From IMG/VR virus record IMGVR_UViG_2778261696_000006: a stretch of 28,988 nt of DNA. The stretch is one strand, 5' to 3'. This DNA comes from a virus (Duplodnaviria; Heunggongvirae; Uroviricota; Caudoviricetes). Every line of letters starts with the position of its first letter. The stretch's first letter is position 1. The notes beneath the pieces are model-generated. The model ran no database searches. It was not told the origin of the DNA and saw only the letters and a list, made by a program, of their open reading frames with translations. The position numbers were made by a program, and so were the translations under genes. This document shows, one piece after another, positions 4,495 to 11,242 of this stretch.

Positions 4495-6717
4495 TTGGCT
4501 GTTCAATTCGCTTATCCGTGGAACGTTCCACGGTCGGCAATCTCCAGCCCATACCTTACTTATGCGCAACAGCATCGCCGCGACCGTATGTTCGCGGCTT
4601 TGCTGCATGCAAAAAAGGTGCTTTCTCTCCAGCCCGACTGCGTGCGGTTAGATGTTTATCGCACTGCTGCGGTGCTGGAGCAAAATCAGGGTAGTCAACG
4701 AGCCAATGCATTTTTAATCAGCTTCTGCAAAAAGGCATTGCCGCGTCTTGAACTGGTCGCAAAAAAATACGAATGCGCTGGTATCAACAGCAAGGTATCA
4801 ACCGCTGTTTTTGGAAGTCATTTTGATACTCAGCAAATGCAATATCTGTCGTCACGCATGGTTAATATGGTCGCCCGATATAACCGTCTCCCGGACATGT
4901 CGCGCGCTGATGTTGACCTGTTGGCCGCTGATATTGCTAATTTCATTCGTGGTGAACTTGCCAACATTAATGACCACGGATTCGGCGAGCTTAAAACGCT
5001 GTACACCTGGTATATTCGTGCTGGCTTTATTTCCCTCCAATTTAACGTTATCCCACCACATTGGGAGCGGGTTGAAAAAAAATATGTCGGTGCGGATGAA
5101 ATCGCACCGGCTATCGCCAAAATGTTTAACGATGGGTGGTGGCGCGGTCGTTTGCGCCGTGTTGCAGCTACGTGGCGCGAACACCTGCAAATTGCAGTCG
5201 GCAACGTCAGTAAGAAAAAAAACACTTACGCGAGTAAAAACTGCGTGACTGACTGGCGTGAACAAAAGCGCCGCACTCGTGAATTTCTCAAAGGTCTGGA
5301 TCTCGAAGACGAAGACGGCAACCGTATCAGCCTGATTGAAAAATATGATGGCTCAGTTGCTAACCCTGCGATTCGCCGCTGTGAGCTCATGACCCGCATT
5401 CGTGGGTTTGAAAACATCTGTAATGAGCTCGGTTATGTCGGTGAGTTTTACACTCTAACCGCGCCGTCAAAATATCACGCCACGACTAAAGCCGGTTACC
5501 GTAACAGCAAATGGAGCGGTGCCAGCCCGGCTGACACGCAAAACTATCTAACCGGTATCTGGGCGCGTATCCGTGCCAAACTACATCGGGAAGATGTCCG
5601 TATTTTCGGTATTCGTGTCGCCGAGCCTCATCACGACGGCACTCCACACTGGCACATGCTGATGTTCATGCTGCCGGAAGATGTTGAATATGTTCGCTCC
5701 ATCGTCCGTAAATACGCATGGAAAGAAGACCGCCACGAACTGAAAAGCGATAAATCCAAAAAAGCACGTTTCCACGCCGAGTCCATTGACCCGGAGAAAG
5801 GCAGTGCAACCGGCTATGTTGCTAAATACATCTCAAAAAATATCGACGGTTATGCTCTCGATGGTGAAACCGATGATGAAAGCGGTGAGCTGCTGAAAGA
5901 GACAGCCCCCGCCGTTTCAGCATGGGCTGCGCGCTGGCACATCCGTCAGTTTCAGTTTATTGGTGGTGCGCCGGTGACGGTTTACCGTGAGTTGCGTCGC
6001 CTCGCTGATACCGAAACCGCGCGCGGTCTGAGCGTTGAGTTTGCCGCCGTCCATGATGCCGCCGACGCTGGTGACTGGGCTGGTTATGTTAATGCTCAGG
6101 GTGGGCCGTTTGTCCGTCGCGATGATTTACAGGTGCGCACACTGTATGAACCGCGTACCGAGCTTAATCAGTACGGTGAGGAAACGGTATGTATTAAGGG
6201 GGTCTACGATTCCTCCATAGGTGCAGGGAGTCCGATTTTAACCCGGCTCACTCAGTGGAAGATTGTTCCGAAGCGTGCTGTTGATTTGGCCGTTGACCTT
6301 CAGGACGGCAAAGCCGTCCCTCGGAGTTCTGTCAATAACTGTACGGGAAGCGAAAGCGATCCACCGATACTGGATTTAACAAAACCACTGAGTCGGCGTG
6401 AAAGACGAGAATTGACCAACCGACTCAGGAAGCAAAAGCCAGCAGCACGGCGAAAACTCATCCACGGAACGGATGAGCAAAACGCAGCTATAGCTAAAAC
6501 TATCGACGAGATACATCTGACAACCGGCATTAATATCAGCCGGGGCGAAGCCCTGCACCTGATGGCCGGTGGTAAAAGTTGTTTTGATGGTAAATGGCTA
6601 CGCGGAACGGCCAAAGGAGAAATATTTTCCGCAGCACCATCGCATGAGGCTAAAGCTCGGAAAATCCTTAATCGTGTTGCGGCGATGGCTGAAGCATCAA
6701 AACCAATACATGAGTAA
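4495..6717 (+). CDS. A: Replication initiation protein A (rolling-circle HUH endonuclease); start is TTG 4495 or a downstream ATG
   Basis: 740-aa ORF containing HUH motif (TPHWHMLMF) and catalytic tyrosine motif YVAKYISKNIDGYALDG as in P2/186 gpA. Confidence 0.9.
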   Translation: MAVQFAYPWNVPRSAISSPYLTYAQQHRRDRMFAALLHAKKVLSLQPDCVRLDVYRTAAVLEQNQGSQRANAFLISFCKKALPRLELVAKKYECAGINSKVSTAVFGSHFDTQQMQYLSSRMVNMVARYNRLPDMSRADVDLLAADIANFIRGELANINDHGFGELKTLYTWYIRAGFISLQFNVIPPHWERVEKKYVGADEIAPAIAKMFNDGWWRGRLRRVAATWREHLQIAVGNVSKKKNTYASKNCVTDWREQKRRTREFLKGLDLEDEDGNRISLIEKYDGSVANPAIRRCELMTRIRGFENICNELGYVGEFYTLTAPSKYHATTKAGYRNSKWSGASPADTQNYLTGIWARIRAKLHREDVRIFGIRVAEPHHDGTPHWHMLMFMLPEDVEYVRSIVRKYAWKEDRHELKSDKSKKARFHAESIDPEKGSATGYVAKYISKNIDGYALDGETDDESGELLKETAPAVSAWAARWHIRQFQFIGGAPVTVYRELRRLADTETARGLSVEFAAVHDAADAGDWAGYVNAQGGPFVRRDDLQVRTLYEPRTELNQYGEETVCIKGVYDSSIGAGSPILTRLTQWKIVPKRAVDLAVDLQDGKAVPRSSVNNCTGSESDPPILDLTKPLSRRERRELTNRLRKQKPAARRKLIHGTDEQNAAIAKTIDEIHLTTGINISRGEALHLMAGGKSCFDGKWLRGTAKGEIFSAAPSHEAKARKILNRVAAMAEASKPIHE

Positions 6718-6777
6718 TTCATATCCATATCATGCACATACAGCAATCGCTCTATTCGTTTTTTTTCTTCCCATCTT

Positions 6778-6811
6778 TTGCCAATACGTGCTACTGTATA
6801 AATATACAGTA
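6778..6811 (+). promoter_or_regulatory. SOS-regulated promoter: -35 TTGCCA (6778-6783) with LexA box TACTGTATAAATATACAGTA (6792-6811)
   Basis: Perfect 9-bp dyad arms CTGT-N8-ACAG matching LexA consensus, overlapping the -10 region 20 nt upstream of ATG 6831. Confidence 0.75.
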
Positions 6812-6830
6812 ACCCTGTGGGAGGGATTTC

Positions 6831-7013
6831 ATGGTTGGCGAACATTTCAGCCGAACGCAGCAAAAGTGGGCTTGTGTGCAATTTATTGCCGAGGTATCTC
6901 TGATTGCAAACTGCAAGCCATCAGACTTAAAGCTCGCGCTCACTCTCATTGCAGACCTAGCAAACAGCGAAAATAACGAAACCGAAGATGATAATTTTTA
7001 TAAGGCTGATTAG
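6831..7013 (+). CDS. LexA-controlled small protein, candidate Tum-type antirepressor
   Basis: 60-aa ORF with RBS GGGAGGG, immediately downstream of LexA box; positional analogy to the 186 p95/tum operon; no sequence-level confirmation possible here. Confidence 0.4.
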   Translation: MVGEHFSRTQQKWACVQFIAEVSLIANCKPSDLKLALTLIADLANSENNETEDDNFYKAD

Positions 7014-7016
7014 ATT

Positions 7017-7247
7017 ATGAGAATCAATATCACGTTGGATAAAGAGCAAAAATTAGGGCAACAGATCATTGATGCTTTTCAGAATGAAATAACACATCGA
7101 GTACAATGCGTTTTTCCTGCAACAAAAGTTAACGTTAAGAAAGGGTCAATGACTGGTGTAGAGGCTATCGGATTCGATAAAGAGGCGGACAGAGAAACAT
7201 TAGGCAGCATATTACAAGAGATTTGGGAAGACGATAGCTGGCGTTAA
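7017..7247 (+). CDS. dinI: DinI-family protein
   Basis: 76 aa, MRINITLDKEQ...LQEIWEDDSW resembles DinI family (MRIEV...ILQETWE); second gene of the LexA-box operon. Confidence 0.75.
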   Translation: MRINITLDKEQKLGQQIIDAFQNEITHRVQCVFPATKVNVKKGSMTGVEAIGFDKEADRETLGSILQEIWEDDSWR

Positions 7248-7265
7248 ACAGAATAACCGTGCTGG

Positions 7266-7329
7266 CGCAAAAACTAGCTTTTTGCGTCGGCGGGGTTGAG
7301 TAACGAGCCCACGAGGCTTAAGTCCTGCC
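7266..7329 (+). repeat. Structured repeat copy R1 (hairpin plus GGCGGGGTTGA...AACGAGC...ACGAGGC...CCTGCC)
   Basis: Hairpin CGCAAAAA-CTAGC-TTTTTGCG followed by conserved GC-rich core; about 80 percent identical to copy at 7672-7733. Confidence 0.6.
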
Positions 7330-7446
7330 TTTCAAAATTTCTCAATGTGCTATTGATGACACCCCCATGATTAATGAGGCATGACCTGAGATGGTTTTAT
7401 AGTGGCGTTTTGACGGCACTGATTAAAATTCATTGAGGGTGATAAT

Positions 7447-7656
7447 ATGCATCGACTACCAGGTGAAATTCCGCAGCACAAAACTAAATGCATCAAACTG
7501 ATGGCCATCGTTCATCGTCTGCAGCAGATAATGGTCAATGAGAATTTGACACCCGCCGAGCTGGTCGGGTGTGCCGAAATAGTCAGGGATAATTACGGCA
7601 AGCTGGATAGCATCAGCAAGCCGACACATTACTCACCGCCACCACGTCGACCATAG
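7447..7656 (+). CDS. Orphan 69-aa protein flanked by R1/R2 repeats
   Basis: ATG with RBS GAGG about 8 nt upstream; no recognisable motif; lies in the A-to-cos accessory interval. Confidence 0.45.
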   Translation: MHRLPGEIPQHKTKCIKLMAIVHRLQQIMVNENLTPAELVGCAEIVRDNYGKLDSISKPTHYSPPPRRP

Positions 7657-7671
7657 ATAACGCCGCCGGAG

Positions 7672-7733
7672 CTGAAACTCGCTTTCAGGTCTGGCGGGGT
7701 TGAACAACGAGCTACGCGAGGCGTTAGCCCGCC
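7672..7733 (+). repeat. Structured repeat copy R2 (hairpin plus GGCGGGGTTGA...AACGAGC...ACGCGAGGC...CCCGCC)
   Basis: Hairpin CTGAAA-CTCGC-TTTCAG then conserved core; outer GGCGGG/CCCGCC can pair (R1 keeps pairing via a G-U). Confidence 0.6.
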
Positions 7734-7938
7734 CCGTAGAGACCGCTCCAAACCGTCGCACTGAATGCCGGTTTTTTTATGTTATTTTCCCGCGATTTCC
7801 CCGTTTTTTAGCCGTGCATGCATCAGGTGCATGGTTTTGCATGCGTCAGTCTTGCCCCTTCTGTCCGTGCGCCGCCAGAGCTGGCGCGGATCCAGAGTTG
7901 TCATGCAACTGCATTAAAACCGACCCATAAAGCGGGCA

Positions 7939-7957
7939 GGCGTGGCGGGGAAAGCAT
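7939..7957 (+). other. cos: cos cohesive-end site (19-nt, 186-type)
   Basis: GGCGTGGCGGGGAAAGCAT matches the remembered 186 cohesive end (P2: GGCGAGGCGGGGAAAGCAC); the following sequence TGCGCGCCAGCGGTGGTGCG...CGTCGTGACGGCGCT resembles the P2 left end as I recall it; location between A-side accessory genes and 3' end of Q. Confidence 0.65.
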
Positions 7958-8161
7958 TGCGCGCCAGCGGTGGTGCGTATTATTAAAAATTATCGTCTGA
8001 GAACGTCGTGACGGCGCTGTAGTGGCCGGGTGTGATCGTGGGCGCGTGGTGCGTCTGTGGCGTGGTGCTAAAGGATGGGATCAGTTGCACAATTTTACGG
8101 TTTCGCTTTGGCTAATATCCATATTGAGACTTTATGTTCCCCACAACAGTTGGAGGCTTTA

Positions 8162-8386
8162 ATGGATAACTATCATATTACAAAAGATGGCGATAAGTGG
8201 AAGTTGCAAAAAGAGGGCAATGATCGCCCTAGCAAGACCGCGACCACAAAGGCCGAGCTGATTAAAACAACATCTGAGTTTATGTCGAACAAAACAGGCT
8301 CGGTCAAAATTCACAAGGAAGATGGGAAAATTCAGGAAGAACGCACTTATCAGAGAAAAGATGATCCTAAAAAGTCTAAAGGCTAA
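8162..8386 (+). CDS. DUF2188-like small protein (moron between cos and portal gene)
   Basis: 74 aa, RBS GGAGG 5 nt upstream of ATG; motif YHITKDGDKWKLQKEG...KAELIKTTSEF...VKIHKEDGKIQEERTY resembles DUF2188 family from memory. Confidence 0.55.
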   Translation: MDNYHITKDGDKWKLQKEGNDRPSKTATTKAELIKTTSEFMSNKTGSVKIHKEDGKIQEERTYQRKDDPKKSKG

Positions 8387-8392
8387 CATAGC

Positions 8393-8415
8393 AAAAGCCG
8401 CCAAAATGGCGGCTT
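8393..8415. terminator. Stem-loop between convergent genes (possible bidirectional terminator)
   Basis: AAGCCGCC-AAAAT-GGCGGCTT 8-bp stem between DUF2188-like gene (+) and Q (-); no strong U-tract on either strand. Confidence 0.35.
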
Positions 8416-8424
8416 AAAAGGTGA

Positions 8425-9471
8425 TTATTCCGGGTTGTCGAGTGTGTACTCTTTGAACCTGATGACCTCCATACCGAGCCAGTCGTTTACCTCCCTGAAC
8501 CTATCCTGCAGGGGTGACAGCTCATTACGCACAAATACCTTTGCCACCTTCTCAACGTCACCGAGTGAACCGATATTCTCGGGCTTGCCGCCCATGAGCT
8601 GGAACGGCACGCGGTGCGCGTCCATCAGGTCGGCGGCGCTGGCTTTCTTAATGTTGAAAAAGTCATCCTTTGTGGCGACCTCGCTCAGTGGCACGATTTT
8701 GATGCCGTCCGGTTTTCCGCCGGGGGCGTAGAAAAACAGGTTCTTAAAGTTGCCGAGTCCCTTCGAGTTACGCATCGCCTCGCGCAGCGATTCGACGTCG
8801 GTCGCACTTTGCGCCGGGTCAGTCACATACATGATGTAGCCTGCGTGCGCGCCGTTCTGATAATACTTGCGGCGGAACAGCGTCGCGGATTCATTCAGCC
8901 AAGCGGAATTAAGCGCGCTGAGATATTCCGGCAGACCGTAAATCTCCTGATTAATGTCGGGCTCCAGCAGGTGAAACACGGTATCAGGCGCGAACTCGTG
9001 CGGCTGGGTGAAGTTTTCCACAAACCAGAAAATCGAATCGTCGACTCCGCGTCGGGTGTATTTGGCTGGCGAGGCCAGCAGTTTGATTAACTGGCCGGTG
9101 ACGCTGTGGCGCTGCTCAAGAAAGGCGTTACCGAATACCAGATAATCGAGCGCAAAGCGGCTGAAATCCTGACGGGATAACAACGGGTGCGGAATGTAGG
9201 TGCTCGCGAGCACGTTACGCTTAACATAAATTGGCGAGCTGTGATGCACGGCAGAGCGCAGGCTCTTTGCCAGCCCTGAGAAGCTGACCGGCGGCTCGTA
9301 CCATTTGCCGTTACTGATGCACTCGACGTAATCCAGAATGTCGCGCTTATCGAGTACCGGCACCGGCTCGCCGAAGGTGAACGCTGTCGTTTTTGGCGGT
9401 GCGCTGGCGGTCAGTTGTTGTGGTTTGCTGGCCTTTTGTGCGTTGGCTTTACGGGATTTTTGTTTACCCAT
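8425..9471 (-). CDS. Q: Portal protein (P2 gpQ)
   Basis: 348 aa, size and position match P2 Q; stop/start overlap with P upstream on same strand. Confidence 0.9.
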   Translation of the reverse strand: MGKQKSRKANAQKASKPQQLTASAPPKTTAFTFGEPVPVLDKRDILDYVECISNGKWYEPPVSFSGLAKSLRSAVHHSSPIYVKRNVLASTYIPHPLLSRQDFSRFALDYLVFGNAFLEQRHSVTGQLIKLLASPAKYTRRGVDDSIFWFVENFTQPHEFAPDTVFHLLEPDINQEIYGLPEYLSALNSAWLNESATLFRRKYYQNGAHAGYIMYVTDPAQSATDVESLREAMRNSKGLGNFKNLFFYAPGGKPDGIKIVPLSEVATKDDFFNIKKASAADLMDAHRVPFQLMGGKPENIGSLGDVEKVAKVFVRNELSPLQDRFREVNDWLGMEVIRFKEYTLDNPE

Positions 9472-9472
9472 T

Positions 9473-11242
9473 TTAGTTGAACTCCAGAATAGATTTAGGC
9501 TGCATGCCGCTACCGGCAGAAAGCGGTTCGTTTAACAGGGCGTGCATGGTCGCCCATGCGATATCGGCGTGGCTGGCTTCCTCGGTGCGGCTGGCCTCAT
9601 AGGTAGCGCTGCGCCCGCTGCTGGTCATGGTTTTGCGGATGGACATAAACGACTGCGTGACGTCGGTTGCTCCGGCGTCGTACTCCAGACAGCCACGGCG
9701 AATGGTGTCTTTCGCCTTGAGTACCATTGCGGTTTTCATTTCAGGTGTGTAACGGATGCCGCGTGCCGCCGGGTAAAATGAGCGCACCAGCTGGAACACG
9801 CCGAGACCGAGGCCGGTTGCGTCAATGCCGATGTATTCGACGTTGTATTTCTCGGTCAGCTTGCGGATGCCCTCTGCCTGTGCTGCAAAATCCATACCCT
9901 TCCACTGGTGGCGCTCCAGCATGCGGAACTTGCCACCAGAGACCACCGGCGGCGCGAGCACGACGCACCCGGCACTGTCGCCGGTGTGTGACGGGTCGTA
10001 GCCTATCCAGACAGGACGAGAGCCGAACGGATGGTCGGCGAACGGGGCAAAGTCCTCCCATTCCTCCATCACATCGACCATGCAGCGCTGCAGCTCCTCG
10101 AACGGGAATACCGACGCTTTATCGTCGACAAACTCGCACATAAACAGGTTCTTAAAGTCCTCATCACTGTTTTCGCGTTTGAGCTGGTCGAGGTCGAACA
10201 GGGTGCAGCCACCCGCAAGGGCGTCCTCAATGGTGACAATCTGCCGCCACTGGCCATCGTCGCAGAGCTGGCCACCGGCGAGCGCGCTGTGACTGATGTC
10301 GATTTCGATGCGGTCGGCAATCCGGCTGCGCCCCTTGTTGAACAGCTCGCCAGACCAGAAGGGGTAAGCGCCGTGCGCCAGCGTGGAAGGTGTCGAAAAA
10401 TAGGTCGAGCGCAGGTGCTTTTGCGAGGCCATGCCCGAGGCGACTTTGCGCAGTTTCTGAAAATTCGGGATCCAGAATATTTCATCGACATACAGATCGC
10501 CGTTATGGCTCTGCGCGGTGTTGGAATTGGTACCGAGAAAAATCAGTTTTGCGCCGTTGTTACCGATGACAATCGGGTCGCCAGTCAGGTCAACGTCGAC
10601 CAGTCGCGCAAACTGGATGATGTATTCGCGGAACACGTAAGCCTGCGTTTTACTGGCTGATAAAAATATCTGGTTATGGCCGGTTTTGAGTGCGCGCAGC
10701 AGTGCCTCGCGGGAGAAATAGAATGTCGCGCCAATCTGGCGGGATTTGAGAATGTCACGAATACGGTGCTCCAGTCCTGCGCGGTACCACTGCAACTGGT
10801 ACTCGAAAGACTGGTCGAAAAATAATTCCTCTAGTTTATCGATAGCCTCGTCGCTGAAAAAATTCTTTTTCGGCTTTTTGCGCTCCCCTTTGTTGCGGTT
10901 GGCGACGTTGGGGTTAAGGTCGGCTTCGTTGCCGGTCTGGCTGTAGCGGTTGACTCGCGCCAACCGTTCAATCTGCCGTCCGAGCAGGTCAATCTCTTTG
11001 AAATCACCCCCTGTCTTTTGCGGCTTGGCGATGAGCTGAATCAGCCTAGCCTCAAGGCTGCTTTCAACGCGGGAAATCGGCGCGATGCCGTCCCAGCCGT
11101 CGCGCTGCTTCCAGCTCTGCACGGTCGGGCGCTTGACCTGCAGCATTTCGGCAATCTGTGGCACGGAAAAACCCTGCCAGTAAAGCAGCGATGCCTGCCG
11201 TCGCGGGTCATGCAACAAGGTTGTATCGGTGGAAATGGTCAT
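9473..11242 (-). CDS. P: Terminase large (ATPase) subunit (P2 gpP)
   Basis: 589 aa, P2 P-like size and position, divergent from O. Confidence 0.9.
   Translation of the reverse strand: MTISTDTTLLHDPRRQASLLYWQGFSVPQIAEMLQVKRPTVQSWKQRDGWDGIAPISRVESSLEARLIQLIAKPQKTGGDFKEIDLLGRQIERLARVNRYSQTGNEADLNPNVANRNKGERKKPKKNFFSDEAIDKLEELFFDQSFEYQLQWYRAGLEHRIRDILKSRQIGATFYFSREALLRALKTGHNQIFLSASKTQAYVFREYIIQFARLVDVDLTGDPIVIGNNGAKLIFLGTNSNTAQSHNGDLYVDEIFWIPNFQKLRKVASGMASQKHLRSTYFSTPSTLAHGAYPFWSGELFNKGRSRIADRIEIDISHSALAGGQLCDDGQWRQIVTIEDALAGGCTLFDLDQLKRENSDEDFKNLFMCEFVDDKASVFPFEELQRCMVDVMEEWEDFAPFADHPFGSRPVWIGYDPSHTGDSAGCVVLAPPVVSGGKFRMLERHQWKGMDFAAQAEGIRKLTEKYNVEYIGIDATGLGLGVFQLVRSFYPAARGIRYTPEMKTAMVLKAKDTIRRGCLEYDAGATDVTQSFMSIRKTMTSSGRSATYEASRTEEASHADIAWATMHALLNEPLSAGSGMQPKSILEFN

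Follow-up and report, generated by a model that had tools for sequence, protein, structure and literature searches.

The DNA considered here (the window: a stretch of 28,988 nucleotides, IMG/VR virus record IMGVR_UViG_2778261696_000006) belongs to a 186/PSP3-like phage of the P2 family (Peduoviridae) that is integrated in E. coli; its positions 7240-7760 are 100% identical to E. coli EC12 (NZ_CP060933). Rightward genes beginning with replication gene A run towards the cohesive-end site cos, beyond which the portal and terminase genes lie on the other strand (Table 1). The interval from A to cos, known as the tin-old (TO) region, is where P2-like phages have their cos-proximal cargo hotspot (PMC9122126). 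This report is about a structured non-coding element, ~70 nt long, of which that interval of the window holds two copies, A and B. We call the family of these copies E, its limits being set by the family alignment. E is a conserved non-coding element that closes the rightward gene block (A, then tum/dinI, gp37 or orf97) in many enterobacterial P2/186-like phages.

Table 1. Features of the window from replication gene A to terminase gene P
Feature	Position	Strand	Remarks
Replication gene A	4495-6717	+	
LexA-box-like palindrome TACTGTATAAATATACAGTA	6792-6811	+	near-perfect; 5' of tumA; read from sequence
tumA-like gene	6831-7013	+	first SOS-operon gene; PSP3 TumA annotation; phrog_1993
tumB/dinI-like gene	7017-7247	+	Pfam DinI, E-value 1.7e-17; PSP3 TumB annotation; stop precedes copy A
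E copy A (internal)	7255-7322	+	directly 3' of tumB/dinI; hairpin 1 at 7255-7297; diverged 3' module at 7298-7322
69-aa open reading frame, PSP3 gp37 homologue	7447-7656	+	phrog_11386, E-value 1e-46; PSP3 annotation; between the two E copies
E copy B (terminal, canonical)	7659-7727	+	directly 3' of the gp37-like reading frame; hairpin 1 at 7659-7701
Near-invariant 3' module of copy B, GGGGTTGAACAACGAGC-TAC-GCGAGGCGTTAG	7696-7727	+	
t95b-like intrinsic terminator (aaaccg..cggttt, then a T run)	7750-7778	+	3' of copy B; aligns with annotated 186 t95b
cos cohesive-end sequence GGCGTGGCGGGGAAAGCAT	7939-7957	not assigned	pattern match; right side of cargo hotspot
Portal gene Q	8425-9471	-	
Terminase gene P	9473-11242	-	

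Two copies in the window and a family in enteric phages

The two copies are direct repeats of one element. A repeat search aligns 56 nt of them at 71% identity, and the core that they share, GGCGGGGTTGANNAACGAGC, occurs twice in the window against 0.03 occurrences expected by chance. A profile made from the pair finds both copies (nhmmer E-values of ~1e-24 for copy B and 1e-23 for copy A) and further copies in relatives (1e-15 to 1e-24); the covariance model built for this work scores copy B at 93 bits and copy A at 60 bits. An earlier note on this DNA, made from the sequence alone, had proposed a repeated structured element here, and that much stands: the copies align above background and relatives carry E. 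The limits that it drew (7266-7329 and 7672-7733) have had to be shifted to those of Table 1, and the closing arm with which it ended the copies (CCTGCC/CCCGCC, at 7324-7329 and 7728-7733) is flank outside the conserved unit, most relatives having unrelated DNA after the terminal GTTAG. Each copy does open with a hairpin, although not one with the short A/T stem described at first: the fold gives 18-19 pairs, and fold energies are -32 kcal/mol (z -4.4) for copy A and -30.7 kcal/mol (z -2.9) for copy B. Both copies also start close behind stop codons, as had been seen (a TAA at 7245-7247 for the dinI-like gene, a TAG at 7654-7656 for the 69-aa open reading frame (ORF)), and cos lies downstream of them, ~210 nt from copy B. 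The ORF between the copies, which had been taken for an orphan, belongs to the PSP3 gp37 family, which is found in dozens of related loci; in many loci tblastn places a homologue beside E.

Copy B occupies the position of the single E copy in phage 186. Loci with two copies always have the order dinI-E-gp37-E, with ~400 nt between the copies. A terminal E that follows dinI is canonical (profile scores of 81-83 bits), whereas the internal copies of two-copy loci keep the hairpin and are relaxed in the 3' module (27.6 vs 31.7 of 32 matches). The window's pair results from a gp37+E module placed behind a dinI+E module, with the internal copy losing its 3' module. The CCTGCC that follows copy A matches the first bases of the flank found in phages without cargo, and this remnant suggests an earlier insertion of the gp37 module ~7 nt past a terminal E.

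Searching other P2-like genomes, a check that the earlier note had proposed, shows that E is widespread among enteric P2/186-like prophages. An exact-core scan of IMG/VR yielded at least 120 loci, and profile searches of all fetched sequences yielded 158 E copies, 109 of them distinct. Every copy whose context was examined is in the interval bounded by replication gene A and portal gene Q, and has the orientation of A. The phage collection has E in 85 records, including 186, PSP3, SEN1, Wphi, P2-EC67, pro147, Erwinia EtG and Yersinia and Klebsiella phages. When one genome per species is scanned, full-length E is found only in Enterobacterales (in Citrobacter, Trabulsiella, Kluyvera, Erwinia, Scandinavium, Enterobacter and Escherichia); GC-rich phyla give partial core matches only, which look like chance. 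Among complete E. coli genomes, 526 of 5426 carry E, at 1-3 places each, and no RNA or regulatory annotation is placed on E among the E. coli matches listed. This confinement to one locus type, the A-to-Q interval of P2-like prophages, led us to reject E as one of the dispersed palindromes (repetitive extragenic palindromes and bacterial interspersed mosaic elements, REP/BIME) or as a miniature inverted-repeat transposable element. The E copies inspected on plasmids are those of P2-like prophages that reside there. One of these plasmids (locus L179, IncC plasmid NZ_CP114566) and ~14 similar ones of ~120-216 kb harbour P2-like prophages with E and reverse-transcriptase cargo; the hosts of these conjugative multi-host plasmids are Klebsiella, E. 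coli, Enterobacter, Citrobacter and Providencia.

For an unbiased sample, 80 loci were picked by similarity of portal protein Q, 75 of them with the whole A-to-Q interval. E is present in 42 of the 75 by profile search and in 44 by the covariance model (~57%); five loci have two copies and 33 have none. With filters off, the covariance model finds no E in reference P2, Fels-2, the more distant relative phiCTX or locus L257. E is therefore common and old within enteric P2-like phages, yet dispensable. (At 8335-8655 of its - strand, L257 has a 106-aa ORF with a tumB/dinI-like start and a different continuation, which extends to the cos-proximal hairpin; E and t95b are both absent there.)

The earlier note had also considered that these copies might be recognition elements for terminase. 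E lies near cos in phages without cargo, as it does in the window, and has the 7-mer GGCGGGG in common with cos; GCGAGGCG is common to E and to the P2 cos sequence. The 7-mer has no further backing and is a coincidence, and an accessory packaging site in the cos region is effectively refuted by distribution, so that we give this explanation hardly any credence. The distance from E to cos ranges from ~210 nt to ~3.7 kb and the distance from E to the stop codon of Q from 480 nt (no cargo: E, t95b and cos) to ~4 kb, and the window's second copy is another 400 nt off. P2, Fels-2 and 33 of the 75 sampled relatives (~43%) have no E at all, and P4, which uses the same terminase, is not among the matches listed for the phage collection. 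The one-strand covariation described below would, moreover, be unexpected for a protein-binding site in duplex DNA.

A strand-specific fold and a near-invariant 3' module

The consensus of E is AACGCCGCCGGTGCTGAAACTCGCTTTCAGTGCTGGCGGGGTTGAACAACGAGC-nnn-GCGAGGCGTTAG, with conservation starting at AAC and ending at GTTAG. A hairpin of 13-19 bp (hairpin 1) is followed by a near-invariant 3' module, GGCGGGGTTGAACAACGAGC-nnn-GCGAGGCGTTAG, in which a mean of 31.6 out of 32 positions match (~99% conserved). Pairing was counted on the 109-sequence alignment. The inner 13-bp stem consists of two helices that are 95% and 98% paired; as a control, sliding the partners by 1-3 columns leaves the whole structure merely 30-44% paired. 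Compensatory changes across related prophages are present in the stem of hairpin 1: its inner part has double-sided changes at 9 pairs, with 4-5 pair types at several positions, and RNAalifold independently predicts the long AAC...GTT hairpin. G-U pairs outnumber A-C pairs in hairpin 1 by 255 to 16, three stem positions being mostly G-U, and the + strand of the consensus folds at -37 kcal/mol (z -4.2) as against -23 kcal/mol (z -0.6) for the reverse complement, which thus folds no better than shuffled sequence. The molecule that folds is therefore the + strand, as RNA or as single-stranded DNA (ssDNA), and not duplex DNA.

A short hairpin (hairpin 2), CGAGC-nnn-GCGAGG, is probably formed by the 3' module; its loop is variable, and it has G.A/A.G pairs in tandem. 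In seven sequences with CTCGC, these tandem pairs are replaced by Watson-Crick U-A/C-G. The 5' AAC has two possible partners, the GTT that ends hairpin 1 and the GTT near the 3' end of E; G-to-C changes seen at column 11 of the alignment speak for the form with two hairpins.

E has been compared with a number of known kinds of signal, and none of those listed here accounts for it. Rfam, searched over 6500-8500 at an E-value of at most 10, gave six matches; no family matched E, the only overlap being a chance mir-998 match on the - strand (19.5 bits vs a threshold of 52). Of the earlier suggestion of a small structured RNA, structure and strand specificity have been borne out; no promoter, own terminator or Rfam match that would mark a free-standing RNA was found. 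Read as a sigma-70 promoter (TTGAAC-N17-GTTAGN), E has the wrong -10 hexamer, and a promoter scan finds none there; read as a LexA box (CTG-N11-CAG), its hairpin has the wrong spacing and the motif is not conserved in A-type copies. The family consensus GCTGGCGG is one mismatch away from the Chi octamer GCTGGTGG, the window copies have GTCGGCGG and TCTGGCGG, and the window contains no true Chi. A secondary nick site for A protein was rejected for want of convincing similarity to the ori nick region of P2/186. Within the phage, the longest match complementary to the invariant module, as for an antisense target, is 9 nt, which is no better than shuffled. Manual inspection finds strand geometry unfit for a kink-turn built on the tandem G.A pairs, and no match to Tus/Ter or DnaA boxes in E.

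Cargo borders and cargo exchange

The left border of the cargo is exact. Downstream of 157 E copies there are 47 clusters of unrelated flanks, each starting immediately after GTTAG, and prefixes shared between clusters are only as long as chance would make them (no base in 74%, one base in 20%). A few nested cases depart from this, among them the 20-nt CTGGTTACCAGATTGACACC, which stands directly after E in L024, L056, L080, L087, L118, L121, L136 and L180, ahead of diverging continuations, and represents either another junction nested behind the first or a short piece that has been conserved. E is identical, and the DNA downstream of it 94-96% identical, between loci that have unrelated genes upstream, so that the 5' edge of E is also a junction, and the same cargo flank occurs behind dinI-, gp37- and orf97-type backbones. 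Contrary to the earlier proposal of an element that travels with each cargo gene, E accompanies the backbone (dinI/tumB, gp37, orf97) and marks where cargo starts.

On the cos side the cargo ends at varying places. Loci become homologous to the window again near 7748, 7764, 7795-7816, 7870 or 7900, and right borders cluster at a few discrete positions (e.g. 7748-7764 and 7895-7901), as opposed to the single exact left border at E. A scan marks as terminator-like a conserved hairpin at 7810-7841 (GCCGTGCATGCATCAGGTGCATGGT, then TTTTGCATGCG) in which the motif TGCATGC is repeated. Many cargo blocks stop immediately 5' of this hairpin (homology resuming at 7810-7816), and the indispensable cos-proximal region may begin with it. 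The right ends of the phage 186 and PSP3 records coincide with the cos position of Table 1. Beyond cos and before the end of Q, the window has a small accessory gene, a 103-aa DUF2188 ORF (phrog_3220; 8075-8386, + strand).

Variation within E bears on how cargo is exchanged. In its 5' half, the variable sites are associated with the upstream cluster; the loop of hairpin 2 is associated with the downstream cluster no less closely than with the upstream one. In mismatch profiles, pairs of copies that are alike only upstream differ more in the 3' loop and pairs that are alike only downstream differ more in the 5' half. This constitutes moderate evidence that crossovers occur inside E, as they would if an event at the cos end were completed by the second, homologous crossover that Rousset et al. 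(2022) proposed (PMC9122126). As E is the sole strongly conserved sequence beside the cargo, exchange of cargo seems to have its left homology anchor in E and its right one in cos-proximal DNA. Homogenisation driven by exchange would not by itself explain the conservation of E, because those exchanges also carry the cos flank, and its identity is 73-94% in all loci except two near-identical relatives, as compared with ~99% in the 3' module of E.

It is possible, although we consider it unlikely, that E is primarily a recombination site. As with the attC sites of integrons, an enzyme specific for the site or its structure would recognise E, as a folded single strand or as duplex, and would join new cargo to it precisely at the edges. 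Both edges of E are exact junctions (47 unrelated flanks with random prefixes on one side, unrelated genes abutting identical E on the other), whereas the cos-side border is spread over at least five positions, and the mechanism of exchange at the hotspot is acknowledged as open (PMC9122126). Like attC, E is an imperfect palindrome of similar size that follows the stop codons of ORFs, folds as a single strand and has AAC...GTTAG termini; an internal GTTGAAC, which fits GTTRRRY, is found in 108 of 109 copies. The likeness fails on closer comparison. The canonical boxes, R'' = RYYYAAC and terminal R' = GTTRRRY, are fully matched in only 1 and 10 of the 109 sequences, respectively, AAC and GTTAG alone being conserved. 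The ~7 bp of outward R''/R' pairing is missing too, AAC/GTT being paired in 94-98% and the four outer positions in 14-64%, which is near chance; complementarity in E instead runs inward from its ends (AACGCC/GGCGTT). And attC folds as the bottom strand, whereas the G-U excess and the folding energies of E favour the top (coding) strand.

The arrangement of the cargo also speaks against an attC-like site. E is not cassette-specific, identical E being found with differing neighbours, and cargo blocks are not closed by an E of their own: there are at most two copies per locus, the pair always around gp37, and cargo past the last E has no second site. No dedicated recombinase is linked to E, which phages with different integrases have in common; no linkage to intI was noticed, in work that included no search aimed at intI. 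The mismatch profiles suggest crossovers within E, which is ordinary homologous exchange, and at least one insertion, that of gp37 behind copy A, was seemingly made ~7 nt past E, with the CCTGCC remnant left behind. The more specific idea of a dedicated folded single-strand recombination site, an integron-like dock without an integron integrase for capture and exchange of defence cargo at a fixed nucleotide, strikes us as quite improbable; if true, it would explain the fast turnover at the cos-proximal hotspot.

The modular-evolution idea, with boundary or linker sequences at the mosaic junctions of lambdoid phages, is reportedly due to Susskind and Botstein. Like such boundary sequences, E is short and conserved, lies between exchangeable modules where unrelated flanks meet, and bears signs of internal crossover. 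E differs from them in its covarying secondary structure and in being conserved above the level of the cos flank, which implies that it has a function of its own and is not mere shared homology.

E in the transcript

Most E copies closely follow an ORF of 45 or more codons, which ends no more than a few bases 5' of them. The commonest spacer between stop codon and E is 2 nt (57 copies), and it is 8 nt or less in ~115 of 154 copies. The upstream neighbours come from a few backbone families (dinI/tumB, gp37, orf97 and some others). In phage 186, E (30344-30412) lies inside the mapped p95 (SOS) transcript, which is annotated to end at t95b (30436-30463). Phage 186 has p95 and a LexA site annotated at the place that corresponds to the LexA-box-like palindrome of the window, which is the likely source of the E-containing transcript there; because of that position, the tumA-tumB-gp37 block, E included, is probably SOS-induced. 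In 44 contexts the first cargo gene 3' of E runs forward, and in 38 it runs in reverse. The stop codon of a reverse gene can be 2 nt from E, and forward genes often begin 16-50 nt past it, as in L020, L026, L039, L060, L100, L112 and L151, where the ribosome-binding site alone stands between. Since a gap of 16-50 nt fits a ribosome site and not a promoter, these co-oriented cargo genes are apparently transcribed through E, and would be SOS- or early-controlled rather than constitutive. Occasionally cargo is found 5' of E (a reverse-strand Fic gene in L180).

E was rejected as an intrinsic terminator: it has no U tract, hairpin 1 being followed by GGGGTTGAAC, and the 186 transcript is annotated to end past it. 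(The lone terminator-like call inside E is the 3' arm of copy A misread as a T run.) Annotation of t95b, ~25 nt past E, as the end of the p95 transcript may likewise argue against an antiterminator. The earlier idea of a 3' terminator or untranslated region (UTR) carried with cargo has thus been half retained: the UTR or intergenic location after stop codons holds, and the terminator, without a U tract and with 186 transcription passing through, does not.

Our preferred interpretation, to which we assign a probability of roughly 0.4, is that E acts as an RNA module, transcribed between cistrons or in the 3' UTR, that serves to protect or process the backbone mRNA. Hairpin 1 would block 3'-to-5' exonucleases and thereby protect the backbone mRNA; the invariant A/U-containing linker between the hairpins, GGUUGAACAAC, would be bound by a host factor, and is perhaps an RNase E-type processing site; hairpin 2 would cap the 5' end of the RNA that continues downstream. 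Expression of the backbone would in this way be uncoupled from that of the interchangeable cargo, which comes in either orientation and is sometimes toxic, and service as a left homology anchor in cargo swapping would be a by-product. As far as anatomy goes (long stem, A/U-containing linker, second hairpin), E would fit a processing-stabiliser module for RNase E/RNase III.

Like REP/BIME, the RNase III sites of T7 early genes and lambda sib, E is a stable, strand-specific hairpin that follows stop codons within a polycistronic or 3'-UTR transcript; it can be dispensed with and separates genes with differing expression needs. It differs from these stabiliser and processing hairpins in being found at one locus of one phage family and in having the near-invariant ~32-nt 3' module that they lack. 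The terminators t95a and t95b of 186 belong to the same operon and interval, copy A being in the t95a slot (after tum/tumB) and copy B just 5' of the t95b homologue; E has another sequence and no U tract, and the 186 transcript is annotated to end beyond it. The put RNAs of phage HK022, ~70 nt long with two stem-loops one base apart, act in cis on the phage transcript; they are promoter-proximal and suppress downstream terminators. In architecture E is similar (~70 nt, two stem-loops one base apart), and the difference is that in 186 the terminator just past E is the annotated transcript end.

A number of considerations weigh against the mRNA-protecting module. Its role as RNA is read from one annotated transcript, that of phage 186, and from inference. 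Strand-specific folding would be met equally by + strand ssDNA, and covariation decides neither the second hairpin nor the choice between the two closing helices. Phages without cargo have a good terminator, t95b, ~25-35 nt past E, which makes an extra protective hairpin look redundant, and ~43% of close relatives, P2 and Fels-2 included, manage without E. In L056 and L180 the gene just 5' of E is on the opposite strand. A plain stabiliser hairpin would not usually be so strongly conserved in sequence, and homologous exchange alone does not easily account for exact junctions with cargos of dozens of unrelated kinds.

The equivalence of RNA and ssDNA in folding raises a further explanation, which we regard as very unlikely: that E is a signal for lagging-strand priming or primosome assembly on the + strand, putatively displaced by the rolling-circle replication that A starts (the ori is in gene A, 1-2 kb upstream). 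Folding is specific to that strand, the orientation of E and its downstream place relative to gene A and the ori are fixed in every locus, and E is kept also in loci that have an upstream gene of opposite orientation. A covarying hairpin beside invariant unpaired bases resembles the single-strand initiation (ssi) signals of plasmids and ssDNA phages, and dispensability suits an accessory priming site. Against this, E has no similarity to the ori nick region of P2/186, P2 and Fels-2 replicate without it, and it keeps close to stop codons and ribosome sites, which is what one would expect of an mRNA element; the 3' module of the internal copy decays, although a priming site should function at either place. 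The probability that remains goes to something not yet considered.

E is unmarked in every annotated record examined. Its core sequence was not found in the literature searched, and two recent papers on the hotspot do not mention it; earlier notice in the TO-region literature is possible. E is a new family of a known general kind, the structured intergenic phage element at a mosaic junction, and what is unusual in it is the combination of exact borders with very strong sequence constraint. The P2-like A-to-cos interval is among the richest known anti-phage defence hotspots, and how its contents are swapped is acknowledged to be open (Rousset et al. 2022, PMC9122126). E ends the conserved early/SOS block in over half of enteric P2/186-like prophages and sets the left border of the hotspot to the nucleotide. 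Even if E were merely a stabiliser hairpin, it would still be a useful annotation feature and a candidate new RNA family. Found in about one-tenth of complete E. coli genomes, it provides a precise landmark by which to delimit cargo in prophage annotation, and a concrete, mutable candidate for the second crossover site in models of exchange. It also adds a new conserved non-coding element to those of phages, the partner of which is to be sought among RNase, RNA polymerase, the replication machinery and recombinase.

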